A stretch of DNA of 64,000 bases from an uncultured cyanobacterium (GCA_903917565.1 CAIXBB010000002.1:45818-109817); one strand, 5' to 3'. Numbered from the stretch's first letter, positions 8,801 to 36,024 are shown. Translations and numbers: made by a program. Notes: generated by a model not told the origin, from the letters alone.

Positions 8801-9083
8801 CCGGCGGCGCGCCATGGTTTTCGGCCAGCAGCCCATCCACGTAGATCCGGCCAGGGCCGATGCTGATCCTGCCGCCGGAAACCTTGATCTCAAAGCCGTT
8901 CGGAGTGGTGCGTGGAACAACGGTGCCGTTGAGGCCATCGAGGGATCCGGCCTGCAGCCTGCGGCTCAGCTGAGCCACCCATTCATTCCAGTCGGAGTCG
9001 AGCTGCACCCGGCCCTGCTGCAGGATCACCTCGTGGAAATCACGGCGGGCATCGAAGTTGATGCGACTGAGATCAAAACTCAT
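5844..9083 (-). CDS. large right-handed parallel beta-helix repeat protein; candidate tail-fibre, receptor-binding or anchoring component of the CIS
   Basis: 1079 aa. Conserved-looking N-terminus MSFDLSRINFDARRDFHEVILQQGRVQLDSDWNEW. C-terminal half has repeated PbH1-like units (GNRIEGFQRHGI, GNQVERMG, GNHFSQLG, DNRFEAIG, GNRMLQ, GNVLRR). Sits where Afp13-type fibre genes sit, directly after the gpI-like gene. Confidence 0.75.
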   Translation of the reverse strand: MSFDLSRINFDARRDFHEVILQQGRVQLDSDWNEWVAQLSRRLQAGSLDGLNGTVVPRTTPNGFEIKVSGGRISIGPGRIYVDGLLAENHGAPPDQWDPRLEELAGVDPIPYEEQPYQPYLKDSSYIKQHLGSDAGLPEKGQHLIYLDVWRRDVTALQDPGLIEPAVGSDTTGRRQTVWQVKVLPNENGVAISCASKEDEIPGWKEILAPVSVRLSTHTGDSELIDDRCDVAPNADYTGLENQLYRVEVHDAGTADKATLKWSRDNGIVASRVSHLDPARQTLTVESLKKDDYLCFRPGSWVEVTDDWCLLAGRPGELCRIKQILPETHQLELDRALPAGLFPTDAEQKTDALRNTLVRQWDNDPLMASGALPLPGKGEKLPLEQGIAVEFFHDPPGGLIPTGTHWVFAARSGTASIPVPLVKAPPLGTHHHYARLAVVDFSTGGVTDCRTLWPPQAQGGCDCSVCVTAEGHNQGTATLQQAINRVKESGGTVCLGAGRYDLDEPISVVGARSLRIRGQGWATQLIARVPGPVLAIADGNGVTVENLTLMGSAANADLPTSMLLARNVVDLRVERCNLLGLESEGGTSVGIGLNGTILGATIRHCAIAAGWGLGRVPVLGQPGFVLAARGVSRELVSAELRLENCVLVGRQRGVSLDDMSFHLGHTLLRHNVILVASAEGSAGVVALGGVLPKGDFRIEANLIDSAGDGVQAGVDGLVITANTIVGNRSGRGDGLRLLEGLDPRGPRRVTVEGNRIEGFQRHGIHQTFPLGHLLLRGNQVERMGAGGLVMAEAATAEHLVCEGNHFSQLGLGQREGNVAFAAVQLMAVRQAELRGNAFDDVAPEARSITAVDAVRVLAVGDLQLVDNRFEAIGPPEGIGQYHCLRVAIPFDRVAIRGNRMLQRNASERPGLFPSWGALLVGPDLDRSVRYRPFAAILLDPGRPLSRPGTVAWLLTEHRLAAVERGARDASIEANTVEAVASSAPLMSTLLAGHVRLAGNVLRRQDPEGSPMGLLVELSGDSISATDNLLMANPQVPTMRLQPVARRAAIVMGNTSSGRFSIDDNLSIPVEIDLTNLIGV

Positions 9084-9096
9084 GACGTGAACTCCT

Positions 9097-14237: not shown

Positions 14238-16876
14238 CAGTTGCCTCCGTTGAGATCGAGCAGGAGCACCCCGCGATCGGGATGGTTGCGGTCGTTGTCG
14301 AGGCGCGGGATCTCCAGGCGGGAGAGCGCCAGAAACCCCCGCTCACGATGGCTGGGATCGGCGAGACCCTGACGCTGGAAGGTGGTGACGTCCACCGACG
14401 CCACACCAGCCACCGCACGGGCTGCCGCCTGGATCCCGCTGAGATAAACGGTCTGGCCGAAGCTCCAGCGGTCGGGGTGGAAATGGCCCAGCTGGCCGTC
14501 TGCGAGCCGGCGGTTTCCGAGGACGGCCAGCAGACGAGCCCTGACGTGGGCCCGCAGGTGGCCAGGCTTGACGCAGACATGCAACCCCACCTCCAGGGGC
14601 ACGGGGATCGGATCGTTGATGTCCAGGTCGTGGCCGGCCATGCGGTACGGCTCCAGGTGCAGGAGCAGGGCGGCTTCGAAGGCGGCGTCGATGGCAACAC
14701 CGCCCAGGCGATCGACAGTAAGGAACACGGTGTGCCAGCTGCCGGTCCAGCGCAGGCTGGCGGCGGCCCGCTGCACGCCCGGGAAGCGCTCGGCGAAAAA
14801 GGCATAGTCGGCGGGGGTGACGGCGCGCATCTGGCTGCGGAAGGCCTGGGGGGCCCGCCGCCGCACCGCAGCGGCATCCTCCGGGTCCCTCCCGCCGAAG
14901 GCCGGCAGGGGGTTGCGAATCCCGCTGGCATCGAGGCTCTCGACGGCTGGTCCACTGGCCACCAGGTGGGCGATGGCACCGGCGCCGACGTTGCCGGATC
15001 GGCCGTTGCCGATCCGGCCATGGGCCAGGAAACGGGTGCCGGGGTCGGGGCGACGGCCATGAACGCCATCCCCGAAGCGCAGGCGGGTGGTGCCGTCGTG
15101 TTCCACTTCCGCCACGAAGCAGCGGTCGTCGGCGCCGCAGGAAAGCAGATCGGGCAGGGGAAACCAACGCGGTGGGGTGGTGCCGAGCTCATCGGGGACG
15201 ACTTCTTCGAGCCACAGCGCCGCCGTGGTGCCGAGCCCGGGCCCTGCCAGGGTGGCAACCGGCTGGGTGGGATCGACCGGCGGCGCCACGAAGGTGAGCG
15301 GCGCCCGGGAGAGGCCGGGGTTGTAACGCGGGGCGATCGGCTCGCTTGCGGGCACCTCGCAGCGGCCTTGGTCCCGCTCCGGCGGGTAGCTGAGGCGGGG
15401 CTGCGGGACAGCTCCCAGATCCTCCGGTGGCAGGGAGAGGCCATGGTCGGCGAGCACGAGATTGCCGCGGGCCACGCTCACGTTGGTCACCGTCCGGCCG
15501 TCCTCGCTCCTGGAGGAAAGACAGAGAGGAAAGGGGAGGGCATCCTCCGGCGCCCAGGCCACGTCGGTGATCATCAAGGGCGGATCGGGCAGTGGATCCT
15601 GGAGGGGAAGGGCGACAGCGCCAAGGGCGGGATCAGGGGGGGCGAAGGCCTGCACGGAGGTGAGCCGCACCACGTGGCGATGGCGTGGGTCGGCCTCCGC
15701 CGCTGTGCCGGTGAGAGGGCCCAGCACCTCCTCGAACAGCAGCGCGTTGCCCGGCTTCAGGTTGGGCAGATGACCCACGAGCGTGGCGCGGGTCGACCCG
15801 GCCGGCAGACAGCAGCGGTCATCGCCCCAGGTGTGCAGATCGATCCGGTTGTGGGCGGGATGGAGGGTGGCCGGATGGGTGGCCGGGAGGGATTCGAAGA
15901 CCAGGGGATCGGCCGCCATCGCCTCCTGCTCCTCGCGACTGCCGGGAACGAGGCGCCGGGGCAGGTCGGGCAGGCGGGTGAGGAAGCGAAGCGGCTTCGG
16001 CGGCAGCGCGATGCCGCTCTCCGGGGCCTGGGCCCCGGTGGGCAGGTGCAGCCACACCCGGGCATTGCAGCCGTCGTCGAGGTGGTAGTCGACCAGCAGG
16101 GCATGGCGCCGCAGGGAAGTGCGCAGCCGGGCGGTGTCGAGGTAGGCCTCGGTGCCGATGGCATCCAGCTGGTAGGAGAGCTGGTCGGCCACGTAGGCGA
16201 TCAGTTCGGCCAGCACCACGCCGAGATCCGCGGCGCTGCGCTCGCGCCAGTCCGGCACCAGCTGGGTGAGCCGATCGAGCACCAGGCGCCGCAGGCTCGG
16301 ATAATCCCGCGCCAGATAGTCGATCGGCGGCTCCAGCAGCGGCTGGGGCGGGCAGGCGTGATCGGGAAGGCAGTCGAGCTCGCTGGGGCATTCCACCTTG
16401 AAGGAAAAGGCCACCTCGGCCAGCTGGGGATCCAGCCAGGCAGGGGGGGCCTCGTCGTTGTCGGCCCGCTGCAGACGCAGGCGATAGGTGGAGAAGTCGC
16501 CCCGTTCGCGGCAACGGATCACCAGCACCTGCTCCGGTTCCGGCAGGGCCGCCACCAGCTCATGCACGGCCTTCTCCTCGGGGTGGGAGAGGGGATCGAG
16601 CTCGGGGGGCGGTGAACTGGCGAGGGCCACCCAGCTCACCACCGGGTCGATGCGACGCTCACCGCCGCGGATCACCACCTTGAAGGAGATGTCGGGCTGA
16701 CCCGCTGAAGTCGGCTTCGGAGGAGGCTTCAGCAGCCGCACCAGCAGGGTGCGCTGCCGCAGGGGATCCCCACTCGGGAGATCGGCATCGACCACTTCGA
16801 GATGGTCGATGCCGTTGAGGGTGGGATGGTCCGCCACCAGCCGGCGACGGTTCTGATCGCAGCAGTGGAGCGTCAT
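14237..16876 (-). CDS. putative baseplate assembly protein, gpJ-like (Afp11/Cis11-like), copy 1
   Basis: 879 aa. N-terminus MTLHCCDQNRRRLVADHPTLNGIDHLEVVD. Baseplate_J-like block MRAVTPADYAFFAERFPGVQRAAASLRWTGSWHTVFLTVD. Overlaps the gp25-like gene (16873-16876). Confidence 0.85.
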   Translation of the reverse strand: MTLHCCDQNRRRLVADHPTLNGIDHLEVVDADLPSGDPLRQRTLLVRLLKPPPKPTSAGQPDISFKVVIRGGERRIDPVVSWVALASSPPPELDPLSHPEEKAVHELVAALPEPEQVLVIRCRERGDFSTYRLRLQRADNDEAPPAWLDPQLAEVAFSFKVECPSELDCLPDHACPPQPLLEPPIDYLARDYPSLRRLVLDRLTQLVPDWRERSAADLGVVLAELIAYVADQLSYQLDAIGTEAYLDTARLRTSLRRHALLVDYHLDDGCNARVWLHLPTGAQAPESGIALPPKPLRFLTRLPDLPRRLVPGSREEQEAMAADPLVFESLPATHPATLHPAHNRIDLHTWGDDRCCLPAGSTRATLVGHLPNLKPGNALLFEEVLGPLTGTAAEADPRHRHVVRLTSVQAFAPPDPALGAVALPLQDPLPDPPLMITDVAWAPEDALPFPLCLSSRSEDGRTVTNVSVARGNLVLADHGLSLPPEDLGAVPQPRLSYPPERDQGRCEVPASEPIAPRYNPGLSRAPLTFVAPPVDPTQPVATLAGPGLGTTAALWLEEVVPDELGTTPPRWFPLPDLLSCGADDRCFVAEVEHDGTTRLRFGDGVHGRRPDPGTRFLAHGRIGNGRSGNVGAGAIAHLVASGPAVESLDASGIRNPLPAFGGRDPEDAAAVRRRAPQAFRSQMRAVTPADYAFFAERFPGVQRAAASLRWTGSWHTVFLTVDRLGGVAIDAAFEAALLLHLEPYRMAGHDLDINDPIPVPLEVGLHVCVKPGHLRAHVRARLLAVLGNRRLADGQLGHFHPDRWSFGQTVYLSGIQAAARAVAGVASVDVTTFQRQGLADPSHRERGFLALSRLEIPRLDNDRNHPDRGVLLLDLNGGN

Positions 16877-17563: not shown

Positions 17564-18133
17564 TCAGATCACCGTGAGGGCGCCGGTGTTCACCGTCACG
17601 GCGGGGCCCACCATCGTGATCGAGGCGCCCTTGCCGTTCTGGATGTAGATGCCGGTGTCGTTGACGATCAAGGTGGCGCCGGTGGCGCTCTTGAGCACGA
17701 TGCCGCCGGTGGGTCCGGGCAGATCGGAGATGGTGAGGCCGTTCTGCAGGGGGGTCTGCAGGGTGATGGCCGGCACGGCGGGAGGCGTGAGCCGTGAGAG
17801 GGCGGGCAGTTCGGCGGCGCTGCCCCAGAAACAACCCACCCAGATGGGGTGCGTGGGGCGGCCCTGCTCGAATTCGATCCACACGCCGGAGCCGATCATC
17901 GGCAGCGCCACCATGCCGTTCTGGATACCCGCCACCGGCACGCAGGGCATGGCCCAGGTGAGGGGGATGACCCCAGCCACATCCGGCACCTGCACCTGCA
18001 GGCGGCCCTTCTGAAGTGGGTCGACGTTGTTGAGCACAACACCGCGATATTTGCCGAGATAATTCTTCCCGGACCTCCCGGCGGCCAGGTCGCTGGCCTT
18101 AGCGGAAGAACGTGTGTGGCCGTTGGTCGTCAT
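17564..18133 (-). CDS. VgrG/gp5/gpV-like baseplate spike protein (Afp8/Cis8-like), short form without effector extension
   Basis: 189 aa. OB-fold spike motif GKYRGVVLNNVDPLQKGRLQVQVPDV...WAMPCVPVAG...GSGVWIEFEQGRPTHPIWVGCFW. Confidence 0.85.
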   Translation of the reverse strand: MTTNGHTRSSAKASDLAAGRSGKNYLGKYRGVVLNNVDPLQKGRLQVQVPDVAGVIPLTWAMPCVPVAGIQNGMVALPMIGSGVWIEFEQGRPTHPIWVGCFWGSAAELPALSRLTPPAVPAITLQTPLQNGLTISDLPGPTGGIVLKSATGATLIVNDTGIYIQNGKGASITMVGPAVTVNTGALTVI

Positions 18134-19272
18134 GGCAGCACATTCGGGGTGAGGGAAACAATGCCGTTGCGGGTGAGTTCGAAGCTCTGCTTGAACTGAC
18201 CGCGCTTCAAGCTGCTGGTGACGCTGCTGACGAAATAGAGCCCGTCGAAGGCGATCCCCACGCCGCGAACCCCCACTAGGTGCCTGGCCTTGAGGACCCG
18301 CCCGTAGCGCAGCACATCCAGGCTGCCACTGGCCTTCACCGCATCCTGCGAAGCGGCGGCCACGGCCACGCCGGCGGCCAGGGCGTGCTGGGGTTTGAGC
18401 CTGGCGGTGCCGCTGAGCATGGTGACGTTGGCAACAGGGGTGGGCAGCGCGGCCAGGGGCGGCTGGAGCGGATTGAGTTTGGGGACGGGAAGGGGTATCG
18501 GCAGCCGCGTCACCTCATTCTGGATGAATACAATCGGCAGTACGGCTTGATCGGCATCGAAGGAGAAACTTAACGATTCGACGTTGGTGAGGGCATCCAT
18601 GTCCACGTTCAGCGCGGGCTGGGGAATGCCGATCTTGATCTCGGGTCCGAAATAGGCAATGTTGGTGCCGGCAACGGGTCCGGGTTCCACGTAGAAGATG
18701 TAGCCCACCTCTTCAGCGAGCTGCTGGATGTAGGCCAGGTCGGTGCCTTCCTGGGCCGGGATGGATTCGATTGGAATCGGTACATCGGGGAACAGCACGG
18801 GGATCACCAGTGGGATCATTCCGTAGGGGGCGTACTTGGCACACAACAGGGCCACGCGGGCCTCGATCGGCAGGGCCGGAAAGGGCAGGCCGCTCCAGTC
18901 GATCGTGTCCATCACCCGGGTGAGATCGACGCCGAACACGGTGATCGTGCCGGCTGACCCAAGACTGCCCGGCTGGGCCTGGATGCGGGTCATCACCCCG
19001 TCGAACAGGGGCTGGGGGGTGCCGTTGAGGGTGACGATCAGGATCAGCCGCAGGGCCGGGGTGGCTGGGCTGGTGCCCTGGGCGCCAACGATCAGGAACA
19101 GCTGGTTGAGGTCGGATTTCGAGCTGAACTGAAAGCTGAGCCGAAAGCCGCTGGCGGCGCCCGTGGCACTGGTCACTTCCACACTGTCGAGGGCGTCGAT
19201 CACCACCCGCGGCGCCGGAACCACCACCACGGGCCCCATCAGCAGCGTCATCTGGATGCCGCTAGTTAGCAT
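18130..19272 (-). CDS. gpD / late-control-D-like baseplate hub protein (Afp7/Cis7-like)
   Basis: The track ORF runs to 19395. I call the internal ATG at 19272 (MLTSGIQMTLLMGP...) because the extension overlaps the LysM gene. Motif EGTDLAYIQQLAEEVGYIFYVEPGP is typical of gpD-like hub proteins. Confidence 0.75.
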   Translation of the reverse strand: MLTSGIQMTLLMGPVVVVPAPRVVIDALDSVEVTSATGAASGFRLSFQFSSKSDLNQLFLIVGAQGTSPATPALRLILIVTLNGTPQPLFDGVMTRIQAQPGSLGSAGTITVFGVDLTRVMDTIDWSGLPFPALPIEARVALLCAKYAPYGMIPLVIPVLFPDVPIPIESIPAQEGTDLAYIQQLAEEVGYIFYVEPGPVAGTNIAYFGPEIKIGIPQPALNVDMDALTNVESLSFSFDADQAVLPIVFIQNEVTRLPIPLPVPKLNPLQPPLAALPTPVANVTMLSGTARLKPQHALAAGVAVAAASQDAVKASGSLDVLRYGRVLKARHLVGVRGVGIAFDGLYFVSSVTSSLKRGQFKQSFELTRNGIVSLTPNVLP

Positions 19273-19624
19273 CACCAACTCCTGGAATCCCCTCGGGCAG
19301 GGTGATGCGCAACCGGCGACCGATGGTTTCGGTGAGTTCGGCGGGCCGCATGGCGCCGTTGGCATCGGCGATGCGCCAGTACTGCAGCGGATCACCGAGG
19401 TAACGGGCGGCGATGGCGTCGATGCGTTCGCTTTCCTCGACGCGATGCTCCTGCAGCAGGGTGAGCTCGTCGGGTTGGGGCAGGAACCGCCGCTCCGAGT
19501 AGCTCACCACGGTGCCATCGGCCAGGGTGTGCTGGCGAAGGGAAAGGCCGTGATATCGGCTGCCGGGTGGATAGAGGGGAGTGGTGAGGCCATTGGCCTG
19601 CAGGAAGGCATCGCGGGGATCCAT
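19262..19624 (-). CDS. LysM-domain tail protein X-like protein (Afp6/Cis6-like)
   Basis: 120 aa. C-terminal LysM pattern ERIDAIAARYLGDPLQYWRIADANGAMRPAELTETIGRRLRITLP. ATGA overlap with the upstream gene at 19624. Confidence 0.75.
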   Translation of the reverse strand: MDPRDAFLQANGLTTPLYPPGSRYHGLSLRQHTLADGTVVSYSERRFLPQPDELTLLQEHRVEESERIDAIAARYLGDPLQYWRIADANGAMRPAELTETIGRRLRITLPEGIPGVGDAN

Positions 19625-20289
19625 CAGCCGATGCCTCCGATGCCGAGGGCGGAGAAGCTGCCGGCCCGGGCCAGGCCGGCGAGCCGTTCCTTGGTCTGCA
19701 GATAGCCGAGGAACAGACCACTGCCGACGTGGCTGAAGCCGAGGTCGTCGACGCTGAGCACCCGCAGGCCGAGGCTCACCTTGGCGCGCAGGGGATTGAG
19801 GGAGGGGTCGAAGGCCTCCTCGGTGATCGAGAAATCACTGAGGCGCACCGGCACGATGCGGCTTTTGCTCCATACGAAAAGCATCAGCGGCGCCTCCATC
19901 GGGGCGATCTCGAGGGTGCCGGAGCTGGCCTGGCGATCGACGCGGCGCAGCTGGGCGCTGGTGGGATGGGCGAGGGCTTCGAGCACCGCCAGCTGGGGCT
20001 GGATGCCGTTCTCCACCGTGGTGCGGTGCTGGTCGGGAAATTCGAGCTGATCGGCGGCATCGATCTCAGCCTCAAGCTTGATCGTTTCCACCGCCGGCCC
20101 CTTGAAGCGCATCGGCTCGGAGCGGTTGCCCCCCTCACCGCCGACGTTGGTGGTCTGCACCTGCAGCGACCTTGAGAGTGAATCGGGGTTGTACTGAAGC
20201 GAGATGATCCGCAACACCCGCGCCGATTCCGGATCGATCAGCACCAGACCGCCTTTGAGGATTCGGGGGGAGTTGGGGAAGGTGGTCAT
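19624..20289 (-). CDS. CIS tube-like / tube-initiator protein (Afp5/Cis5-like)
   Basis: 221 aa. N-terminus MTTFPNSPRILKGGLVLIDPES...SLQYNPDSLSRSL fits the contractile-injection-system tube-protein family found at this position in eCIS loci. High GC like the rest of the operon. Confidence 0.75.
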   Translation of the reverse strand: MTTFPNSPRILKGGLVLIDPESARVLRIISLQYNPDSLSRSLQVQTTNVGGEGGNRSEPMRFKGPAVETIKLEAEIDAADQLEFPDQHRTTVENGIQPQLAVLEALAHPTSAQLRRVDRQASSGTLEIAPMEAPLMLFVWSKSRIVPVRLSDFSITEEAFDPSLNPLRAKVSLGLRVLSVDDLGFSHVGSGLFLGYLQTKERLAGLARAGSFSALGIGGIG

Positions 20290-20399
20290 TGCGGCTACCT
20301 ATAGGTTCTGATGGTCCACGTTTTCGTTGTAGCGAGGTGGGTTGCAGTTTACTGCTGAATTCTCTACTGCTATTTACGGGTGCACTCAGCAGACTTGTA

Positions 20400-20900
20400 T
20401 CACAGGCAACTCTTCGTCAGGAAGATTCCCTTGCCAAAAGCGCCGAAAGCACCACTCATCGAGCTGTTGGGCGGAGCAGCCCCTCCTGCTGCACGTAGCT
20501 TAAAACTAGCGCCATCCTGTTTCTCAAGTTCAGATCTTCTAGCTTCTTCACGCACTGGCACCACGCGACTCTTGTTCCGATTGAACATCAACATAGGCGC
20601 CTCGGCCGGCAGGATTTCCAGCGTGCCCGTCTGTGTCAGCGCATTCAGTGCCAGCAGCTCGGCACTGCTCAGCTTCAGCAGACTCTCCAGAGCTGCGAGT
20701 TGCGGCGCGACTCCAAAGGGAAAGGCATTCGCGTTCTGGTCCGGATGCTCCAGCGAATAGGTGGCGTCGATCTCCTCGTCGCGCCTGATCGACTCGATGG
20801 CCGGCTCTTTGAGACGGAACGGCTGAGCGTACGCAGGGTCATGGATGACAAAGCCACCTTTGATCAGCTTGGGGCTACCGGGGAAGGCGCTGGTGTGTGA
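20400..20900 (-). pseudogene. decayed second copy of the Afp5/Cis5-like tube gene (no start codon, internal deletion, frame disruption)
   Basis: The in-frame part of track ORF 20400-21134 reads ..HTSAFPGSPKLIKGGFVIHDPAYAQPFRLKEPAIESIRRDEEIDA...GVAPQLAALESL...TGTLEILPAEAPMLMFNRNKSRVVPV. It aligns block by block with the intact neighbour (MTTFPNSPRILKGGLVLIDPES...RFKGPAVETIKLEAEIDA...GIQPQLAVLEAL...SGTLEIAPMEAPLMLFVWSKSRIVPV). It lacks the ATG (CAC in its place), lacks about 35 codons (SLQYNPDSLS... block), and diverges after VPV. Lower GC than the intact copy. Confidence 0.65.
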
Positions 20901-20910
20901 CTTCAGGTCG

Positions 20911-21582
20911 TCAATCAGGCACTTGGCCGAAACCCAGCAGAATGACCATCCGGCTGAACACATAAGAGAAGCCCTGCACCTTCGGGCTCTGGTTGCCCTT
21001 GATGGTTTCTTGCCTGACGGCAACAACTCGCGCCACCACAACTGAGTCCAGCCCTGGTTCCTGAACTCCCGCAGCACATCGCGCTCCATCGGTGTAGGGG
21101 AACGGGATACCAGACGGGAATTGTGAAGAGCCAAAGCTCACGGAGCCCGAGCACCACGGATTACCCTCGGGCACGATGCCGTGCAGATAGTTCTTCACGA
21201 TCGGCGCGCGATGATTGCCGGCAATTTGATCTGCGCCCGCTTTTAACTCATCGATTGCCACCGCCAACGCAGCGCGCCCGTGCTTGTTACTACTCATGCT
21301 AGCCGCCGGCATCTGCAAGAAATCAACTGCGCTTGTGGTCTGGATGATCGGTTTCGGGTGATGCAGGCTCCATCACGTCATCTCCCCGTCCTTCCCGTCC
21401 ACCGTCAGTAGCTGACGGTTCTGGTCCAGGTTCTGCGCTTGGAACAACCCTACCGCGCGATAGGTCTCGTTATCGAAGACCCCATTGGATCCGTCGTCGG
21501 CAAGATAGCCCCTGTGCGCCAGCAAGCTCTGGACTTCCTTGACCTCGGGGATTGGATCGCCTGTTTTAAGCAGTCTTGCCAT
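20911..21582 (-). pseudogene. decayed peptidoglycan-binding (PG_binding_1-like) + TIGR02594/NlpC-like cell-wall hydrolase gene
   Basis: ORF 21373-21582 (KEVQSLLAHRGYLADDGSNGVFDNETYRAVGLFQAQNL...VDGKDGEMT) is a PG-binding repeat. It ends at a TGA (21373-21375) that is in the same frame as ORF 20911-21318, separated by 18 sense codons. The second part carries NHRAPIVKNYLHG..EGNPWCSGSV (hydrolase-family motif). Expected downstream motifs are split between frames (NQGW in one frame, KGNQSPKV in another). Confidence 0.6.
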
Positions 21583-21914
21583 TTCCGCACCCTTTTCCTG
21601 TCATATTCGTATTTCAAAATTGAGCCTGACCCCGTTGATACTTGCCATGCGAGTCAACTCGATGACTGATTTAATATTTCAAAATTTCCGGAATACACCT
21701 TTCACGCTTGCATCCCTGAGGTGCTCTCGCCCCTAATCCCGGTTTCGTAATATGGTTTGGAAAGTCATTTTTATCCTTCACTTATCTCCATTAAGTCCGA
21801 TTATCGCACCTTGCCGCTCGCTATTAACGTGGTCCCCAATTCCCATGCTTCCCAGCTATTGCTTTCTATATGGATCCCAATTGCTGCTCGAGAGAGGGTT
21901 ATCTCAAACCATGC

Positions 21915-22442
21915 TTACTCGACACCGCAGGCGAATTGAAGTACGACTTCAAAGTCATGCTTTAGGTCTAGAATCTTGCCAAGTTGTGTATCGTAGGTTG
22001 AAAACCCGCCTACGGACTCGAGAATCTCAAGACAATCCCAAAGAACCCGAAGGGCGTGAATGCATGCGTGCGCCTCCCCCACGAAAGAAAAGGAAGCTCC
22101 AGCTCCCTCATCAAAGATCAGGATTTGGATCCACAGCTTCTCCTCATTGAGTTCCACGGTTCTGAAGAGTCGTCGCGCCTCCGCCTCGGTAATACCTCGA
22201 GCTTTCGCAATCCCAAAATAATCACGCTTATACAACTCCAGCGTAGGATGTCGAGCGATTAAATCAGATGCAAGCCGTTGCTTTAGTTGTTCTTTGTTCG
22301 GATCAATTGAGTCTAGATCGGCCGAATCTGGCGCTTTATCCGAAGTTCTTTTCAGCTCTTCCATTTTCTGATGGTATGCCTTATGCCGATCAAGGCCCGC
22401 TGGAAGGCGAATTAGATCAAATCCGTAGCTCATTAGCTTCAA
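21915..22442 (-). CDS. hypothetical cytoplasmic protein; candidate immunity/antidote for the adjacent effector
   Basis: 175-aa intact ORF, low GC, 34 nt downstream of the effector stop, same strand. No signal peptide or TM helix. No recognisable domain. Confidence 0.6.
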   Translation of the reverse strand: MKLMSYGFDLIRLPAGLDRHKAYHQKMEELKRTSDKAPDSADLDSIDPNKEQLKQRLASDLIARHPTLELYKRDYFGIAKARGITEAEARRLFRTVELNEEKLWIQILIFDEGAGASFSFVGEAHACIHALRVLWDCLEILESVGGFSTYDTQLGKILDLKHDFEVVLQFACGVE

Positions 22443-22476
22443 TCCTCTTTCAGTGAAAACAACAATTTCTTTGTTA

Positions 22477-25002
22477 TCATTTTATCACCGCTCCAATGCC
22501 AGCTTTGTCTAGTGCCTCCTTAAGTGGGGAATTTGGACCAATTTCTCCGTTACTTGGGTTTTCATAGAAGTGCCATTCGGTACGACTGACCTTGCCAGCC
22601 TTCATCAGTTCAACATCCTTGTCGATCTCCTCTTGAAGGCGTGTTGACCAGTTCTGTTTGCCGAACTTCGCTTCTCGTGAAACGCGATCACCATGGGTAA
22701 AACAATCGATGTCTCGCCGTCCCGAATCCGCGGAGAGAGCTTGCTTTTGCCCGCCAAATTCTTTGCGTAGCGCATCCTCGGCTTCTGGCCAAGATTTAGG
22801 AGCTAACGGAGGAGGCGCTAATCGGCCTTCTTCATCCCTCAGTCTGTTGTTGCGGATTCGCTCCGCATCGCGTTCGTTTTTCCACTTCTCTGCAGACTCT
22901 CTATTCCGCGCCGTTTTCTCGAGCAAGGCCTTACGTTCTTCTCCTTGAGCATTAACCGCTTTCAAGCTTGCTTCTCTTGATCTTTCTTCTGCATTCAAAC
23001 GCTTTATATCCAGATCCCTGATCTTTGCATCACTTAGATTCCGTTCTTGCTCGATCTCCTCTAGACGCTGCGCTCTGGATCTAGTCGGCACTTCAGCCTT
23101 CGGCTCAGTCTTGACTGCCGTAGGTTCTGTGGACTTAGGATCGGGCTTGGCCGGATCGGGCTTCACCGGCTCGCTCTTGCCGACCGGCTCGCTCTTGACG
23201 ACCGGGTCTGACTTGACGACTGGTTCCGGCTGGATCGGTTTAGGGTTGACGACCGAGTCTGACTTGACGACTGGTTCCGGCTTGAACGGTTTGGGGCTGA
23301 CGACCGAGTCTGACTTGACGACTGGTTCCGGCGTGACCGGTTTGGGGTTGACGAACGAGTCTGACTTGACGACTGGATCCGGCTTGACCGGTTTGGGATT
23401 GACGACCGGGTCTGACTTGACGACTGGATCCGTCTTGGCCCGGTTGGGTGCGGATAGTTCAGTAGCTTCAGATACTGCCGAAGGTCGCGCGCCGCCACCC
23501 GCGCCAAGACTTAACATAATAATTGGTTCCATCCATGTCATAAACAAGCCCCGAACCTTCGCCTCCTCGAGAGCATGATCATTTACCTGATGGAAGGTAA
23601 CGTGGTGATGGCCTGAATCGACCCAATCCTCTAACCAGTTTAAAATCGTGGTCTGCTCGTTGAGGAATGTATTACAAGTGTCCAGTTGATTGGCCGCTTT
23701 TTCATAAGTGGGGCCAAGGGCATCCCGCTTATTATAATTGTCGAATAGATCCTTGTTATTAGCATAAGCCACTTTGTCTTTTTTCGCAATTGCTTCCCTA
23801 AGCTGCTTTTCGGCATCAACGGCAATATTGCAAGCCTCGATCCAGTACTGAAACCATATTTGGAAATGTTGGTGACCGTTAAGCAGGTTAGACGGGTCTG
23901 AGGCGGCCAACAGAAACGCATCTCGCCTAGATTTCCATTGTATGGCAATATCAGCTGTGGGTATTTGATCAATGGGACGAAGTGTGGTCGCATCCAAGTT
24001 ACCAACCTTAGCTACTCCTGAAGCACCTGCGACAGCGTCCGCTACCGGCGAAGACTTGGTAACGGCTGAGCCCGAAAGCGGCCCCGGAGTGGATTTTGTG
24101 ACGGCCTGCGTTTCCACGGAATCTATGAGCCTCGCGACACGATTGCTTGGCAAGGGATCAATTTGCAGAGCTATGGTAAGAAGCTTCTGGCGAGCATACA
24201 AGTTCAGCGCCGATAGCTCCTCATGTGCATCGCTGTCACTCATTTCAGCCACGGCGCGCACTGCGCCCGACCAGTCACTTGAATTTATCGCGTCATTGAA
24301 TAGCAAGGCGAGTTTGGCCCCCTCTCGTTGCAGTCTTGGTGCATTGATGGACGTCGGAAATGGTGTTTTATCGGACTCTCTTGCGAGTGAATGTTCGATT
24401 TGCGAACTGCTGCCCGACTGTTGCACCACATGCGTCAATTCATGGGCAATCAAGCGTCGGCCCTCATGCGCCTGCGGACCGTAGTGCCCTGCGCCGAACA
24501 CAATGCTGTTGCCTACCGTATAGGCATGAGCGTTCACCTCCCGAGCCGATAGGTCGGCAGCCGCATCCACATGCACCCGTACGCTCGAAAAGTTGTGGCC
24601 GAAGCGCTGTGCCATGTCCTGCTGCAACGTCGGTTCTAGCGGCCTCCCCGGCCTGGCGAGAACGCGATCTACGCTGGCTGGAGCTGTTTCTTCCTGTCCG
24701 GTTACTTGTTCCGTGAAGCGCCGGATGCGCGGGGATGTGTCGCTGACGGCAGGATTTGAAGGCTTAGCCATCACCTCATCCGCAACCCGATCCGCTTCCT
24801 GTTCCAGCGGGTCGTTGCTCGCGCCGATGGTGAGCTTGGTCTGGATGAGTTTCTTGCTCGTGCTTTCCGCACAATCGCCGGTCAGCGACGAAGTCGGCGA
24901 GCCGCAGGCGCGCTTGCGATGCAGCAGCAAACCGGTAGGTGTCGAACTGCTCAACGACTGTGGCTTGGCGCCTTGTGTCTGCAAGGGTGCGGTGGTGCTC
25001 AT
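22477..25002 (-). CDS. DUF4157-domain (zincin-like HExxH) CIS cargo/effector protein with tandem-repeat linker, coiled-coil and C-terminal PD-(D/E)xK-like toxin module
   Basis: 841 aa. DUF4157 hallmarks DPLEQEADRVADEVM, LEPTLQQDMAQRFGHNFSSVRVHVD..A..AYTVGNSIVFG and LIAHELTHVVQQ (HExxH codons about 24430-24444). Five 17-aa Pro-rich repeats, then a Lys/Glu/Arg-rich coiled-coil. The last ~106 aa contain GRRDIDCF...RVSREAKFGKQ. Confidence 0.85.
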   Translation of the reverse strand: MSTTAPLQTQGAKPQSLSSSTPTGLLLHRKRACGSPTSSLTGDCAESTSKKLIQTKLTIGASNDPLEQEADRVADEVMAKPSNPAVSDTSPRIRRFTEQVTGQEETAPASVDRVLARPGRPLEPTLQQDMAQRFGHNFSSVRVHVDAAADLSAREVNAHAYTVGNSIVFGAGHYGPQAHEGRRLIAHELTHVVQQSGSSSQIEHSLARESDKTPFPTSINAPRLQREGAKLALLFNDAINSSDWSGAVRAVAEMSDSDAHEELSALNLYARQKLLTIALQIDPLPSNRVARLIDSVETQAVTKSTPGPLSGSAVTKSSPVADAVAGASGVAKVGNLDATTLRPIDQIPTADIAIQWKSRRDAFLLAASDPSNLLNGHQHFQIWFQYWIEACNIAVDAEKQLREAIAKKDKVAYANNKDLFDNYNKRDALGPTYEKAANQLDTCNTFLNEQTTILNWLEDWVDSGHHHVTFHQVNDHALEEAKVRGLFMTWMEPIIMLSLGAGGGARPSAVSEATELSAPNRAKTDPVVKSDPVVNPKPVKPDPVVKSDSFVNPKPVTPEPVVKSDSVVSPKPFKPEPVVKSDSVVNPKPIQPEPVVKSDPVVKSEPVGKSEPVKPDPAKPDPKSTEPTAVKTEPKAEVPTRSRAQRLEEIEQERNLSDAKIRDLDIKRLNAEERSREASLKAVNAQGEERKALLEKTARNRESAEKWKNERDAERIRNNRLRDEEGRLAPPPLAPKSWPEAEDALRKEFGGQKQALSADSGRRDIDCFTHGDRVSREAKFGKQNWSTRLQEEIDKDVELMKAGKVSRTEWHFYENPSNGEIGPNSPLKEALDKAGIGAVIK
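23190..23440. repeat. tandem repeat, 51-nt period, about 5 copies, inside the effector CDS
   Basis: The string tctgacttgacgac recurs starting at 23207, 23258, 23309, 23360 and 23411 (exact 51-nt spacing). It encodes 17-aa units KSD(S/P)VVNPKPxxPEPVV on the minus strand. Confidence 0.9.
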
Positions 25003-25259
25003 GTCCCGATCTCCTTGCCGATGCCCTGCGCCACGTTCTCCCCGACGCGCTGGGGCTTTGATCCCTGCTCAAACTGCACGCCGTTCACGTGCATCCGCGA
25101 CAGGTCTCCCCTGTCCCTCAGGTCTGAAATCACATCACGATCCGCGAAAACCCGCCCCAGCTCCTCCCGCAGCCCCTCGGCAATAGCGTGCCGATGTTCA
25201 CTGGGAAAGCCGTTGAGCACCAGCCGGTCGATGTGAATGATCACCCGCTTCATGGCCAA
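24999..25259 (-). CDS. small conserved-looking CIS-associated protein (possible effector adaptor/chaperone)
   Basis: 86-aa ORF. Stop overlaps the effector start (ATGA at 24999-25002). Start overlaps the end of the AAA+ ATPase gene. N-terminus MAMKRVIIHIDRLVLNGF. Confidence 0.6.
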   Translation of the reverse strand: MAMKRVIIHIDRLVLNGFPSEHRHAIAEGLREELGRVFADRDVISDLRDRGDLSRMHVNGVQFEQGSKPQRVGENVAQGIGKEIGT

Positions 25260-27187
25260 CCCCGGGTTTCTGCTGCGGCCAGCGGCCGCTCCCGCTTGCT
25301 GGCCTCGCTCTGGGCCGCCGCGAACAGCTGCTCCATGCCCACGGGCGTGCCGGCTTCGGCGGCCAGGAAGGCAGCGGCGAGGGCGATGTTGCGGATGTTA
25401 CCGCCGGCCATCTGCAGGCGGGCCAGTTGGTTGGGGTCGACCCCATCGAGCGGCGTGCCCGCCGGGAACACCCGCCGCCAGATGGCCGCGCGCTGCTCGG
25501 CATCCGGGAAGGGGAAGCTGACCACGAAGCGCAGCCGCCGTTGGAACGCCGTATCGAGCGCATCCTTCTGGTTGGTGGTGAGGATCGCCAGGCCCCGGTA
25601 GCTCTCCATCCGCTGCAGCAGATAGCTCACTTCGATATTGGCGTGGCGGTCGTGGCTGTCCTTCACCTCGCTGCGTTTGCCGAACAGGGCATCGGCTTCA
25701 TCGAACAACAGAATGGCGCCACTGTCTTCGGCGGCTTCGAACACCTGGGCCAGGTTCTTTTCGGTTTCGCCGATGTACTTGCTCACCACCGCCGCCAGAT
25801 TGATGCGGTAGAGATCCAGCTGCAGCTCCCGCGCCAGCACCTCGGCGGCCATCGTCTTGCCGGTGCCGCTCTCGCCGGCGAACAGCACGGAGATTCCCAG
25901 GCCTCGGTTCCCCTGGCTGGCGAAGCCCCAGTGCTCATACACCGTCAGCCGGTGCTGCACCTGGGAGGCGATCTGGCGCAGGGTGTCCTGCTGCGCCTCC
26001 GGCAGGATCAGATCGTCCCAACAGGCCGCGGACTCGATCCGCTGGGCGAGATGTCCCAGCTGCGAGCGGTGATGCCCCCGGCAGGCGCGCCAGAGCTGGG
26101 CGGCCCCTGCCTCCGCTGGCTCGCTGGCGCCGCCGCTCAGGCTGCGGGCCAGGCGCTGGATCTCATCGCTGCTGAAGCGGAATTCGGCCGCCAACCCCTC
26201 CAGCACCGGGCCCAGCTTCGGTGCGGCCTGGCCAACGGCCTGCTGCCACAGGGCGCGCTGCTCGGTGCGCGTTGGTTTGGGCACCGCCGCGCGCAGATCG
26301 TCCCGCCGGCAGGGCAGCGGCTCCGGCCCCGCCACCAGGGTGACCCCCACCACCCGTTCGAGAAACGTCAGGGCCGCGTGGCCGGTGGTGGCATCCTGCT
26401 GCTCCACCAGCAGGGCGGCGCTGATCAGGCTGGCCTCCCGCTCCCACAGCCGCTCCAGGGCGTGCCGCTCCATGGGGTTGGCGGGGATGTCGTCAGCCGC
26501 CAGAACGAACAGGCGCAGGCCCAGCTGGGCGGCCACCGCCGCCGCCACATCCCGCTGGCCCGGCCCATCGTTGCCGGTGAGCTGCACCAGGGGCAGCGGC
26601 GATCCCCGCCGTTGCAGGGCCTCGGCGATCCGCTCGGCCAGCAGGGCCTGGGAGGGGGCCATCACCGTGGGGCAGGGCACCGGCAGGAGCAGCGGCGTCA
26701 GACGGGGGTCCGGATCGTCCACCCCGGCCAGGTGGTGCAGCACCCGCTCATCGATGCGCAGACGGGCGTTCACCACGGTGGCGTCGTCGCTGGCTTCGAT
26801 CAGGCGCCAGTGCCGCAGCGGCCGGCCCGGTGAGAGGGCACTCCAGTGCGGCTCGCCCAGCACCGCCAGGGCCAGCCCGAAGCTCGCCCACGGGCGTTGA
26901 TTGCCGGCCTGGGAGTGGGCGCAGAGGGCGGCGATCTCCCCATCCATCTCAACCCCGGCCGTGAGCAGCAGCAGCTCGCGCTCAAATGGCGACAGGCCGA
27001 AATCGGCGCAGAGACGATCGATCGCCGCGGGCTGCTCCATGGCCTGGCGCGCCGCTGCGATCGCCGCTTCAGCGGCGCGGCCATCGCCGCCCTCGAGCAG
27101 CTCCTTGATCCGGGCCAGTTCCCCCGAGAGCACCCGCTGGTTGGCCTCGCTCCAGGTGGTGTTGCGGATGCCGGTGGCGACGCTCAT
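25250..27187 (-). CDS. AAA+ ATPase (Afp15/Cis15-like CIS assembly ATPase)
   Basis: 645 aa. Walker A GESGTGKTMAAEVLA, Walker B AILLFDEADALFGKR, sensor/arginine-finger region ILTTNQKDALDTAFQRRLRFVVSFPFP. Large N-terminal non-ATPase region, as in eCIS ATPases. Confidence 0.9.
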   Translation of the reverse strand: MSVATGIRNTTWSEANQRVLSGELARIKELLEGGDGRAAEAAIAAARQAMEQPAAIDRLCADFGLSPFERELLLLTAGVEMDGEIAALCAHSQAGNQRPWASFGLALAVLGEPHWSALSPGRPLRHWRLIEASDDATVVNARLRIDERVLHHLAGVDDPDPRLTPLLLPVPCPTVMAPSQALLAERIAEALQRRGSPLPLVQLTGNDGPGQRDVAAAVAAQLGLRLFVLAADDIPANPMERHALERLWEREASLISAALLVEQQDATTGHAALTFLERVVGVTLVAGPEPLPCRRDDLRAAVPKPTRTEQRALWQQAVGQAAPKLGPVLEGLAAEFRFSSDEIQRLARSLSGGASEPAEAGAAQLWRACRGHHRSQLGHLAQRIESAACWDDLILPEAQQDTLRQIASQVQHRLTVYEHWGFASQGNRGLGISVLFAGESGTGKTMAAEVLARELQLDLYRINLAAVVSKYIGETEKNLAQVFEAAEDSGAILLFDEADALFGKRSEVKDSHDRHANIEVSYLLQRMESYRGLAILTTNQKDALDTAFQRRLRFVVSFPFPDAEQRAAIWRRVFPAGTPLDGVDPNQLARLQMAGGNIRNIALAAAFLAAEAGTPVGMEQLFAAAQSEASKRERPLAAAETRGWP

Positions 27188-28524
27188 TTCACCGCCATCC
27201 GCTTGTTGAGAAATTCGGGCGGTTGCTTGGTCCTATCCACCGATGGACTCTCAATGCCGTCGATCCGCAGCCGCACCAGATGACCCAGCGTGCCCGTGGG
27301 GGTGAGCTCTGCTTCCTTCATCAGGAACTCCAGCTTGTCGGTGCTGTCGCTGGGGATCGCTTTGGGCTTCACGCCCCGCCCACCGACCAGCGCCATGACC
27401 TGCTGCCCCGGCCGCAGGCGGGGCTGGAACTTCACCGTGAAGCTGATGGCGCCGCTGGCGTCTCGAGAGACGCTGGTGGGCAGGCTTGTGATCTCCGGAG
27501 CCAGCACCAGCGCCAGATCATTCGAGTGCTGCAGCTCGGTGGCAGCGGCCCCCACGGTCCGCTCCATCCGCACACCCACCCGGTAGATCCCCACGGGGAA
27601 ATCCGCCGCCCTTGCCACCGGCACCTGGAACCGGAGGGTTCGTGCCGGGTCGTCGGTCGACTCGGCCGGCCCCTCCGCAAGTCTGACGGCATCGATCTGG
27701 AAGCGATCATTGCTGAGCACGGCCACACGGTTGCTGCCATCGAGGTGATGGCCCTGCAACTCGATCGTCGCCCCCAGGCGCGTCATCGGCTGCCCGTCTG
27801 CCGGCACCACCGCCGTGAGGGTGGGCACCGCGGGCTCCATGGTGGCCTGCACGTCCACGCCGGGATCGCGCGGTTGCCCGGGCACCACCCTGCCGCGGCT
27901 GAGCACCGGCAGCGGAGCCCGCGCCGGCTCGTCGGTCTGGATCAGAACAACGCTCGCCCGGTAGGTGGTGGAAGGCCTGAAATTGCTGAGCGTGGCTGAC
28001 CACAGCTTGGTGAGTTCTTCGCTGCTCAGCATGTCCGGGGTGATCCGGATCCGCTCGATCTGGTGTTCCAGGCCCGAGGCGGCGAGCGCCTTTCCGAGGG
28101 CCGTCGCTGGGGGGCTCGAGGGCGGATCGAGCAGCGTGCGAATCCTGGTCCGTGAGAACTCCGGCCGTTCGTGCAGTTCCTGCATCGCCAGGCCCAGCAG
28201 GATCTCTCCCTGCAGATCGGCGGCGCTGTAGGCGGAGAGCAGGTAGTGCAGATCGATCGCCAGCGGCCTCTGGCTCAACCGCTGGCGACCCGAGGCATCA
28301 CGGCTGGGCAGATCCTGATTGCACCAGCCGGCGTTGGTGGTCACCTGGTGCAGAAACAGATTCAGCTGTGGCACCTCCGTGCCGCGCACCACGCGGTCGG
28401 GAGGCAGCACACTCACCTTCACGCCGTTGCCAAGAATCCTGATCGTGGCATCAGCACTCAGCACTTCACTCAGCTGCTTCTGCATCACGGAGGTCACCGC
28501 CGCGATGGCCATGGCATTGCTCAT
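27184..28524 (-). CDS. DUF4255-domain protein (Afp16/Cis16-like tail terminator/cap) with long C-terminal extension
   Basis: 446 aa. N-terminus MSNAMAIAAVTSVMQKQL...LNLFLHQVTTNAGWCNQDLP...PLAIDLHYLLSAY matches the DUF4255 pattern. About 250 extra beta-rich residues follow. Confidence 0.8.
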   Translation of the reverse strand: MSNAMAIAAVTSVMQKQLSEVLSADATIRILGNGVKVSVLPPDRVVRGTEVPQLNLFLHQVTTNAGWCNQDLPSRDASGRQRLSQRPLAIDLHYLLSAYSAADLQGEILLGLAMQELHERPEFSRTRIRTLLDPPSSPPATALGKALAASGLEHQIERIRITPDMLSSEELTKLWSATLSNFRPSTTYRASVVLIQTDEPARAPLPVLSRGRVVPGQPRDPGVDVQATMEPAVPTLTAVVPADGQPMTRLGATIELQGHHLDGSNRVAVLSNDRFQIDAVRLAEGPAESTDDPARTLRFQVPVARAADFPVGIYRVGVRMERTVGAAATELQHSNDLALVLAPEITSLPTSVSRDASGAISFTVKFQPRLRPGQQVMALVGGRGVKPKAIPSDSTDKLEFLMKEAELTPTGTLGHLVRLRIDGIESPSVDRTKQPPEFLNKRMAVK

Positions 28525-30000: not shown

Positions 30001-30525
30001 TCAGGCGGGCTCGGAATACTCGACTTCGCTGGGCTCGGTCACGTCGTAGTCACGCTCCCAGCCTTCGTTCTCGAGCTTGATGTGCTGAATCGCCACGGCG
30101 TTGGCGTTGGCGTCGAGGTCGGGCAGGGCCTGGAATTCCGACACCCAGCAGCGGAACAGCTTGTAGGCCAGCGCCAGCTGGCCGGCCTCGTTGTAGACCT
30201 CCAGGATCAGATCCTTGCGGAAATTCTTCAGCGATACTTCCGCTCCCAGACCCGAACCGAAGTTCCACACCTTGTTGGCCCACTTCTCGAACTCGGTGTC
30301 ATGGGTGACACCACGCTCTAGCTGAATCGCCTCGAACTTGGTGCGGCCGGGCGATTTTCGAGACGTGGAAGGATCGCCGCCCTCGCGGTGCTCCACAAGC
30401 TCCGTGCTGCGCTTGAGTGCCCCCACCTTGGAGATCCCGGCCACGTAGCGGCCATCCCACTTCACCCGGAACTTGAAGTTCTTGTAAGGGTCGAAACGCT
30501 GGGCATTGACACTGAACTGGGCCAT
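30001..30525 (-). CDS. phage tail tube protein, T4 gp19-like (Afp1/Cis1-like inner tube)
   Basis: I call the internal start at 30525 (MAQFSVNAQRFDPYKNFKFRVKWDGRYVAGISKVGALKRSTE...), preceded by AGGAGAC. The longer track ORF (to 30918) overlaps the sheath gene. FKFRV..DG....G.SKV is the hallmark of this tube family. Confidence 0.9.
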   Translation of the reverse strand: MAQFSVNAQRFDPYKNFKFRVKWDGRYVAGISKVGALKRSTELVEHREGGDPSTSRKSPGRTKFEAIQLERGVTHDTEFEKWANKVWNFGSGLGAEVSLKNFRKDLILEVYNEAGQLALAYKLFRCWVSEFQALPDLDANANAVAIQHIKLENEGWERDYDVTEPSEVEYSEPA

Positions 30526-30536
30526 GGGGGTGTCTC

Positions 30537-33176: not shown

Positions 33177-36024
<2,848 letters not shown>

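Follow-up and report, generated by a model that had tools for sequence, protein, structure and literature searches.

We analyzed a 64,000-nucleotide stretch of DNA from an uncultured cyanobacterium (GCA_903917565.1 CAIXBB010000002.1:45818-109817), hereafter the window, that carries an operon for an extracellular contractile injection system (eCIS). The operon lies on the minus strand at 5.8-33.2 kb, in a window of about 68% GC. Pfam matches to sheath, tube, tube-initiator/cis5, VgrG-like spike, Baseplate_J, Pvc16/terminator cap, and AAA+ ATPase families fall within this one operon, which is the gene set of an eCIS. Its nearest relative among species-representative genomes is a betaproteobacterial metagenome-assembled genome (MAG; L005), with an ATPase that is 63% identical and a cis5 that is 77% identical. 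The interval at 20290-25002 is the cargo slot of this betaproteobacterial-type eCIS operon. A preliminary description, made from the sequence alone, had proposed that the interval holds an effector, a small intact open reading frame (ORF), and two decayed genes. We find all four, all on the minus strand, and list them with their flanks below. L169 denotes an orthologous eCIS locus whose genes match in size (GCA_943368255.1), which we reached by searching with the dead cis5 and which encodes P0312; other L- and P-numbers denote further loci and proteins.

25250-27187, minus strand: AAA+ ATPase (Cis15/Afp15-like), which bounds the cargo slot upstream as a conserved flank (Pfam AAA, E = 1.2e-27, plus WHD; 95% nucleotide identity to L169).
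24999-25259, minus strand: gene for an 86-amino-acid (86-aa) protein that follows the ATPase in this eCIS type (homologues directly after the ATPase in 22 loci; 86% nucleotide identity to L169).
22477-25002, minus strand: 841-aa cargo/effector gene (Pfam eCIS_core, E = 4.1e-30; mosaic homology along its length).
24775-25002, minus strand: codons 1-76 of the effector, a resident N-terminal region ending in the motif TIGASNDPLEQEADRVAD (24778-24831), with 85% amino acid and 82-97% nucleotide identity to L169.
23195-23448, minus strand: 51-bp tandem repeat in five copies, encoding a 17-aa Pro-rich linker (Tandem Repeats Finder).
22477-23091, minus strand: putative C-terminal toxin module of the effector, a two-helix hairpin plus a PD-(D/E)xK-like core of ~110 aa (from relatives, motif, and an AlphaFold 2 model).
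~21585-24774, minus strand: exchanged segment of 3.19 kb and 51.4% GC, comprising the DUF4157 domain, the C-terminal part of the effector, the 172-aa ORF, and an AT-rich spacer.
21915-22433, minus strand: 172-aa immunity candidate (ATG at 22433; the ORF reaches a TTG at 22442), proposed from co-occurrence in L003.
20911-21582, minus strand: pseudogene of a PG_binding_1 plus CHAP cell-wall hydrolase (PG_binding_1, E = 2.9e-7, followed by a CHAP-type domain).
~20400-20900, minus strand: pseudogene of a second, "type-B" cis5 (tblastn E = 2e-28 to cis5).
19624-20289, minus strand: intact resident cis5, the downstream conserved flank of the slot (Pfam CIS_tube, E = 4.6e-9; GC at third codon positions, GC3, 0.86; 94% nucleotide and 97% amino acid identity to L169).

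The cargo slot forms an abrupt low-GC island in the middle of the operon, as the preliminary description had judged by eye. Its GC content is 53.4%, against 68.7% for the rest of the window; other 4.7-kb stretches of the window have a mean of 68.9% (standard deviation 2.0, minimum 64.0), which places the interval at z = -7.7. Two AT-rich stretches within it (21590-21760 and 22440-22560), guessed to hold 40-50% GC, measure 45-46%. Most of the effector and the small ORF have a GC3 of 0.44-0.50, the flanking CIS genes one of 0.78-0.88, and an index resembling the codon adaptation index, built on the CIS genes, agrees (0.30-0.32 in the interval vs 0.61-0.77).

Such a dip might arise with no transfer at all, either from a chimeric assembly or as a local quirk of a repetitive, low-complexity effector gene, whose Pro-rich repeat region is indeed unusual in composition. 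However, two independent metagenome assemblies from other samples (L001 and L002) reproduce the interval at 99.9% identity, and the sole difference is the copy number of the 51-bp repeat, which rules out a chimeric contig. L002 has one copy fewer (P0001, 824 aa vs 841 aa), the assemblies being otherwise identical, and an apparent frameshift in the 172-aa gene of L001 was rejected as a scaffold gap of Ns. The dip also extends over the small ORF, the spacer, and coding sequence without repeats, and a clean replacement is seen against L169 (below). With three independent assemblies in agreement, we regard the absence of transfer as refuted. Insertion of a mobile element or genomic island was likewise rejected: no transposon-like or boundary repeats were seen at the slot edges, the window contains no tRNA genes and no Rfam RNA families, and none of the slot ORFs matches a mobility-gene family.

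The payload differs between the window and its sister locus, and the limits of the difference can be mapped. From the tube to about 25280 the two loci are 92-98% identical at the nucleotide level, and across the 86-aa gene and the first 47 codons of the effector they are 82-90% identical, with 97% in the conserved motif (24860-24801). Identity is only 62-67% over 24740-24409 (codons 85-198), which encodes the rest of the N-terminal region and the DUF4157 domain, and we detected no nucleotide or translated similarity between window positions 24408-21585 and L169 positions 6749-9255. Homology returns at 21584, two bases before the ATG of the relic hydrolase, and continues through the relics, cis5, and the spike genes, reaching 85-96% from about 20980. 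The encoded effectors, of 841 aa in the window and 920 aa in L169, follow the same pattern: they are 85% identical over residues 1-76 and 62% identical over residues 77-200, and they are unrelated beyond. Four-fold-site identity between the two loci in neighbouring genes is 0.82-0.93. Because the 62-67% nucleotide identity lies far under this neutral level, codons 77-200 are not orthologous by descent. On the evidence of this alignment and of the relic deletions shared by both loci (below), at least one replacement of ~24774-21585 is placed after the split of the two genomes. L169 thus shows payload replacement at exactly the place where the preliminary description had suspected a snapshot of eCIS payload swapping.

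The left breakpoint falls directly after the motif TIGASNDPLEQEADRVAD, and the right-hand join falls at the start codon of the dead hydrolase. The motif is among the most conserved nucleotide stretches common to the window and distant loci, and is for that reason a plausible left homology arm. Relatedness of the N-terminal region to other loci (55% to L098 and 49% to L005) settled nothing about this junction; its placement was settled by the L169 comparison. No homology is visible at the right-hand junction, where we infer illegitimate or microhomology end-joining. The window lineage is favored as the recipient, since its cassette is compositionally alien, L003, which carries the related tip and immunity candidate, shows the same GC step (from 0.63 in DUF4157 to 0.50 in the C-terminus), and the effector of L169 is nearer to host composition.

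The 841-aa protein has the architecture of an eCIS cargo protein. A Ser/Thr/Pro-rich N-terminus is followed by eCIS_core (DUF4157), a middle domain, five 17-aa Pro-rich repeats, a helical hairpin, and a toxin tip. The eCIS_core domain (PF13699) spans residues 121-197 (E = 4.1e-30), with HELTH at residue 187, and the C-terminus that follows it is variable. We found 3488 relatives at E <= 1e-5, which match mainly the first ~200 residues. Among the best 120 of these, the local match covers 17-36% of the query (59% in one), mostly at 50-73% identity, and diverse other Pfam domains are present. The middle domain has matches in two other proteins only, one of them from a cyanobacterial eCIS, and returned nothing from sequence searches of Pfam, NCBIfam, and PDB.

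The toxin tip is shared with proteins that use other delivery domains. An exhaustive search with the last 204 residues gave 14 cluster representatives that match over the full length, and ~600 sequences that match the last 100 residues only. Many of these core-only relatives sit at the extreme C-terminus of RHS-repeat proteins, and others belong to other eCIS_core proteins. The same tip is therefore fused to unrelated delivery domains, as in polymorphic toxins. In an alignment of 25 tips, E13, R34, D37, E48, K50, K66, and D67 are invariant or nearly so, and E13, D37, E48, and K50 (E742, D766, E777, and K779 of the 841-aa protein) form an invariant E..D..ExK across the 25 sequences. In AlphaFold 2 models of the tip, with predicted local distance difference test (pLDDT) scores of 94 and 96, a hairpin of two helices leads into an alpha-beta-beta-beta-alpha-beta-alpha-beta core. 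Structural neighbors with a sensible root-mean-square deviation are AF1548, BstYI, EcoT38I, EndoMS, and BamHI, all of the restriction-endonuclease fold, at weak E-values of 0.014-0.13. No sequence match to the tip was found in Pfam, NCBIfam, or PDB; the best Tox-REase hit in Pfam was to a single member (E = 0.17). The models and motif make it probable, though not certain, that the tip is an uncatalogued polymorphic toxin domain of the PD-(D/E)xK type; Rhs proteins carry it too.

The small ORF downstream of the effector is a candidate immunity gene. The whole tip recurs in a single database protein, P0010 of L003 (57% identical), and directly 3' of the P0010 gene lies a 175-aa gene whose product is 56% identical to the 172-aa protein. 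Because tip and gene travel together in L003, albeit in this single co-occurrence, the 172-aa ORF bears the signature of a toxin/immunity pair. Sequence searches of Pfam, NCBIfam, and PDB returned nothing for the 172-aa protein. This one co-occurrence supports the view that the effector and the small ORF behave as a foreign toxin/immunity-like module, and the presence of an immunity candidate suggests a bacterial target.

Both relics downstream of the module are true pseudogenes, in line with the decay that the preliminary description had noticed. In the hydrolase relic, a TGA (21374-21376) has replaced a conserved Trp codon, there are frameshifts, and of two internal deletions one has taken the catalytic-His region; the Cys motif PWC is kept. 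Its intact homologues are proteins of 252-255 aa with PF01471 and PF05257 domains and are 62-70% identical to the relic. The cis5 relic has lost 34 internal core residues and the C-terminal third, and its tail is out of frame. As proposed, it is a divergent second copy of the intact cis5 (19624-20289), with which it shares 34-37% identity; to type-B cis5 proteins its identity is 55-76%. The 34-aa deletion and the out-of-frame tail are also found in P0312 (L169), P0320, and P0325, short proteins with 71-76% identity, and a third contig (ERZ1426826) carries the same relic followed by cis5.

The decay of the relics began before the window and L169 diverged. L169 carries the relics decayed, not intact; in both loci the CHAP domain has the same two deletions, and the relic cis5 lacks the 34 residues and its C-terminus. 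With this and the large dip in GC and GC3, the two outcomes that would have refuted the island in the preliminary description (no marked dip, or intact genes in a related genome) both turned out in its favor. Since these large deletions are shared, the relics are older than the divergence of the two genomes. Each locus also has private lesions, namely the TGA and a 2-bp deletion in the window and, in L169, a stop (TAA) at codon 7 and a different 2-bp deletion. Identity between the two sets of relics (0.79-0.85) is about equal to the neutral level.

The composition of the relics is better explained, on the polarized substitutions, by AT-biased decay than as the signature of a low-GC donor. Using outgroups to polarize the differences between the window and L169, we counted 38 GC-to-AT vs 23 AT-to-GC changes in the hydrolase relic and 19 vs 3 in the cis5 relic, or 57 vs 26 in both. 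Because substitutions run toward AT, the ancestor of the relics was at least as GC-rich as the relics are now (57% GC). The closest intact type-B cis5 genes for which DNA is available have 65-71% GC (L172 from Rhizobacter, L008, L020, and L070). Amelioration, in which the relics would be GC-richer through a longer stay, was dropped because the polarized substitutions move toward AT, not GC. We also rejected L085/L087-type loci as the source of the dead cis5, which is only 36-38% identical to theirs (59-67% for the hydrolase) and belongs to the type-B lineage. Of the proposal that an effector module came from a lower-GC donor, the part concerning the effector and the small ORF is supported in that these look foreign; for the hydrolase and cis5 relics a lower-GC donor is not shown, given their AT-biased decay and, for cis5, the nearest intact relatives in loci of 65-71% GC.

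We consider a history of at least two recombination events probable, with moderate confidence: an old import of a slot segment carrying the hydrolase and the type-B cis5, and a later replacement of a ~3.2-kb cassette. In the older event, a slot segment ending in these two genes would have been joined upstream of the resident cis5; both extra genes would then have died, leaving remains that are common to the sister genome. After the split, ~3.2 kb would have been replaced in at least one lineage, with composition pointing to that of the window. A left crossover just after TIGASNDPLEQEADRVAD would have retained the resident first 76 residues, and the DUF4157 domain, the effector C-terminus, and the downstream gene would have been exchanged as a single unit, with the right join at the start codon of the dead hydrolase.

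The preliminary description had instead envisaged one import of the effector, immunity gene, hydrolase, and cis5. To fit the sister locus, this import would have to predate the split, with the window keeping the module and L169 later swapping its effector. It takes the same number of events; moreover, the window cassette (49-51% GC) resembles the loci with the nearest intact hydrolases (49-54% GC), and in those loci cargo lies directly upstream of the hydrolase. Nevertheless, a joint import is not required by the data, and L169 shares the relics but not the effector. The drift of the relics from GC to AT (57 vs 26) implies a source of at least 58% GC, unlike the 49-50% cassette, and the dead cis5 has its closest intact relatives in loci of 65-71% GC. 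In the hydrolase-type loci, furthermore, hydrolase, cis5, and cargo are of one composition. The difference between the 57% GC of the relics and the 49-50% of the cassette, together with the AT-ward decay, argues against one common origin of the two, although the argument from polarized changes is not strong because the counts are small. We judge a single import unlikely.

Alternatively, the relics might be the former 3' end of the upstream half of the operon, displaced when a downstream half (the present cis5 to the baseplate) was recombined from another eCIS lineage, and not baggage of imported cargo at all. A resident origin fits their decay from a GC-rich start, type-B cis5 occurs in GC-rich Burkholderiales-like loci, and the low identity to L169 of the baseplate genes below 16780 (65-80%, vs 92-96% nearby) indicates that module-level recombination does occur in the operon. 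Against this, the present cis5 and its neighbors match the upstream half in GC3 and codon usage and, like that half, are closely similar to L169 (93-94% identical). Relics of the same kind in L170 and L173 lie inside the slot between cargo genes, which fits the import of cargo segments. A chimera of structural modules is accordingly very unlikely in our view.

Several points nevertheless weigh against the two-event history as we have described it. The right-hand joins show no recognizable homology, which leaves their mechanism a matter of inference. The recipient lineage is unproven: the comparison has one diverged sister locus with DNA, and the window may keep the original cargo while L169 changed. 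The donor search that the preliminary description had called for yielded no close donor for any part in any collection, the best matches reaching 57% amino acid identity (tip), 56% (immunity candidate), and 62-70% (hydrolase). Finally, the fold matches of the tip have weak E-values (0.014-0.08), with no Pfam or PDB sequence match behind them.

The interval between the ATPase and cis5 varies in other eCIS loci as well. In 80 loci recovered with the ATPase, this distance ranges from 230 bp to >9 kb, with 0-4 eCIS_core genes inside. Because both length and eCIS_core count vary over these loci, the interval is a variable cargo slot family-wide, a point that the preliminary description had suggested checking. 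Slot GC in the 80 loci is usually 0-4 points from that of the flanks; the drop of 15 points in the window is an outlier.

Intact counterparts of the relics occupy the same position elsewhere. The nearest intact hydrolases (in L085, L087 from a Nitrosomonas MAG, L089, L092, and L098) are all directly upstream of cis5 in eCIS loci, where the gene order is ATPase, 85/86-aa gene, eCIS_core cargo, hydrolase, cis5. DNA homology of the window relics spans the hydrolase/cis5 junction of L087. Since the intact order exists in other eCIS loci (L085, L087, L089, and L098), hydrolase followed by cis5 is a native arrangement there. In L095 and L101, on contigs of 61-66% GC, a hydrolase homologue lies directly after the 86-aa gene, with no cis5 match 3' of it in the remaining contig (0.8 kb in L095 and 2.9 kb in L101). 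The position of the hydrolase in the slot therefore differs between lineages.

Truncated structural genes are found in further slots. L007, L017, and L018 each have an N-terminal cis5 fragment of 45-106 aa that is 78-91% identical to their own cis5, with at least one ORF, eCIS_core-like by eye only, between the fragment and the intact gene. In L170, the native cargo and cis5 genes are preceded by a foreign block that consists of an ATPase fragment, an 84-aa gene, two eCIS_core genes, and a cis5 fragment. The ATPase piece (6099-6878) is a 259-aa C-terminal fragment that is 67% identical to the ATPase of the locus itself, and the cis5 piece (10001-10498) is a 165-aa type-B fragment that is 43% identical to its own cis5. 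These fragments bracket the imported cargo set, leaving scars at both slot boundaries. We rejected the idea that the ATPase fragment is window-like, because lineages ordinarily show 77% identity to one another in this domain; the evidence goes no further than a source outside L170. In L173, a chimeric ORF (693-1333) joins residues 1-140 of a type-B cis5 to the last 26 residues of a CHAP hydrolase, followed by a second cis5 fragment of 32 residues and then by a different, intact cis5.

These gene fragments make it evident that segments of the slot travel between eCIS loci and take parts of the adjoining structural genes along. We would put roughly even weight for and against a more general model, in which slots would turn over by taking up segments from other eCIS loci time after time, with conserved sequences (the 3' end of the ATPase gene, the motif near the cargo N-terminus, and the 5' end of cis5) as homology arms. 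Imprecise joins would stack truncated cis5 genes, and sometimes ATPase or hydrolase pieces, as a fossil record of payloads, and the breakpoint after the motif would mark the boundary between packaging signal and effector unit. As a separate observation, the sole cis5 copy is split by a frameshift in L050 (16940-17591) and L171 (3958-4622), which may reflect sequencing error or real inactivation.

The retained N-terminus suggests how the cargo may be loaded. In AlgoCIS, cargo needs its disordered N-terminal domain (NTD) to enter the tube lumen but can do without DUF4157, and an AAA+ protein mediates loading (bioRxiv 10.64898/2026.05.27.728243). By analogy with these NTD data, residues 1-76 may be a system-specific packaging signal, a reading that fits because they are retained across the swap. 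The ATPase would then load the 841-aa protein into the tube through its N-terminus, as in AlgoCIS. The particle may inject the protein into target bacteria, where the PD-(D/E)xK-like tip would cut nucleic acid, and the 172-aa protein would shield the producer.

The exchange resembles, in several respects, what is known from other polymorphic toxin systems. In Rhs and contact-dependent inhibition (CDI; CdiA-CT/CdiI) systems, C-terminal toxin/immunity modules are reportedly replaced and orphan modules occur, as Poole et al. in 2011 and Koskiniemi et al. in 2014 are said to have described. The window effector shares with these systems a conserved N-terminal delivery part, a variable tip, and an immunity gene (here a candidate) directly downstream, and Rhs proteins carry this tip as well. 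A further likeness lies in a conserved motif as the site of recombination and in remnants that earlier events left in the locus. In contrast to Rhs and CDI, the vehicle in the window is a phage-tail-like particle. The eCIS remnants are truncated structural genes (cis5, hydrolase, and the ATPase piece in L170) rather than displaced toxin tips, and they lie upstream of the resident gene that they duplicate.

Payload regions have reportedly been recognized in eCIS before, by Yang et al. in 2006 for the Photorhabdus PVC and by Hurst et al. in 2004 for the Serratia Afp. Like them, the window combines conserved structural genes with payload genes that vary between otherwise similar loci; the slot of the window differs in being internal, between the ATPase and cis5. 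A PD-(D/E)xK nuclease toxin, the PoNe DNase, is likewise said to have been described by Jana et al. in 2019. The window tip would resemble PD-(D/E)xK polymorphic toxins such as Tox-REase and PoNe in its modeled alpha-beta-beta-beta-alpha-beta core, its invariant E, D, and ExK, and its structural neighbors, restriction endonucleases matched at weak E-values. Unlike the Pfam Tox-REase families, it gives no significant model match (best E = 0.17).

DUF4157 is an established N-terminal partner of variable toxins (PMC8213781, PMC11297309). The 841-aa protein is like the eCIS-associated toxins (EATs) of Geller et al. 2021 (PMC8213781), and like Cgo1 and Cgo2 of AlgoCIS, in its disordered N-terminus, HExxH-bearing DUF4157, long linker, and variable C-terminal toxin, and its gene likewise lies inside an eCIS operon after the AAA+ ATPase. 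It differs from EATs in that its C-terminal domain has no Pfam model and a cognate immunity-like gene is present; many of the toxins tested by Geller et al. 2021 had no cognate immunity gene (PMC8213781). The DUF4157-toxin architecture and the exchange of polymorphic-toxin cassettes in general are already known. We located no published account in which breakpoints are mapped for an effector replaced in situ between sister eCIS loci, or in which relics of structural genes are read as scars.

The acquisition of payloads by eCIS is poorly documented, and the published work that we found covers architecture, not exchange events. Together, the window and L169 give base-level breakpoints of a natural payload swap in which the first 76 residues stay with the machine. 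That the DUF4157 domain, toxin, and immunity candidate would move as a unit suggests a fusion point for foreign cargo in engineered eCIS delivery. Truncated cis5 and ATPase pieces are potential markers for surveys of payload turnover in metagenomes.

The remaining genes of the operon flank the slot on both sides.

To 33218, minus strand: sheath (Pfam).
30001-30918, minus strand: tube (Pfam).
Between the tube and the Pvc16_N cap, minus strand: two small proteins (gene order).
27184-28524, minus strand: Pvc16_N cap (Pfam).
19262-19624, minus strand: 120-aa gene, with a 380-aa gene, 3' of cis5 (one 421-aa ORF in a mechanical list).
17564-18133, minus strand: VgrG-like spike (Pfam), with gp25 next in gene order.
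14237-16876 and 11343-14237, minus strand: two Baseplate_J-like genes, with further large proteins after them.

The gp25 gene was called in L001, where the locus is identical to the window. The 86-aa protein at the head of the slot has no match in sequence searches of Pfam, NCBIfam, and PDB. Divergence from L169 is uneven along the operon. The Baseplate_J-like genes (12011-16780) are only 64-83% identical to those of L169, vs 90-96% for the cis5-to-gp25 genes just upstream, and their products measure 879 and 964 aa in the window and 861 and 956 aa in L169. They look like a second recombining or fast-evolving module, possibly involved in target recognition. Four-fold-site identity to L169 is only 0.63 in the tube (30001-30525) and in the 120-aa gene (19262-19624), which may be local divergence hotspots or small recombination patches.

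Two further observations concern the ends of the operon. A catalase-peroxidase (katG-like) gene on the plus strand (33802-36024) is the divergent neighbor of the sheath gene, as it is in L002. In the gap between them, 500-bp windows starting at 33001-33301 have 51-56% GC; this is probably a promoter region. Beyond the distal end of the operon, a gene on the minus strand (3232-4644) encodes a protein of 470 aa that combines Phage_lysozyme with YkuD (L,D-transpeptidase) and might act in lysis, act on the cell wall, or serve as another effector. YkuD also forms the C-terminus of several DUF4157 relatives of the window effector.

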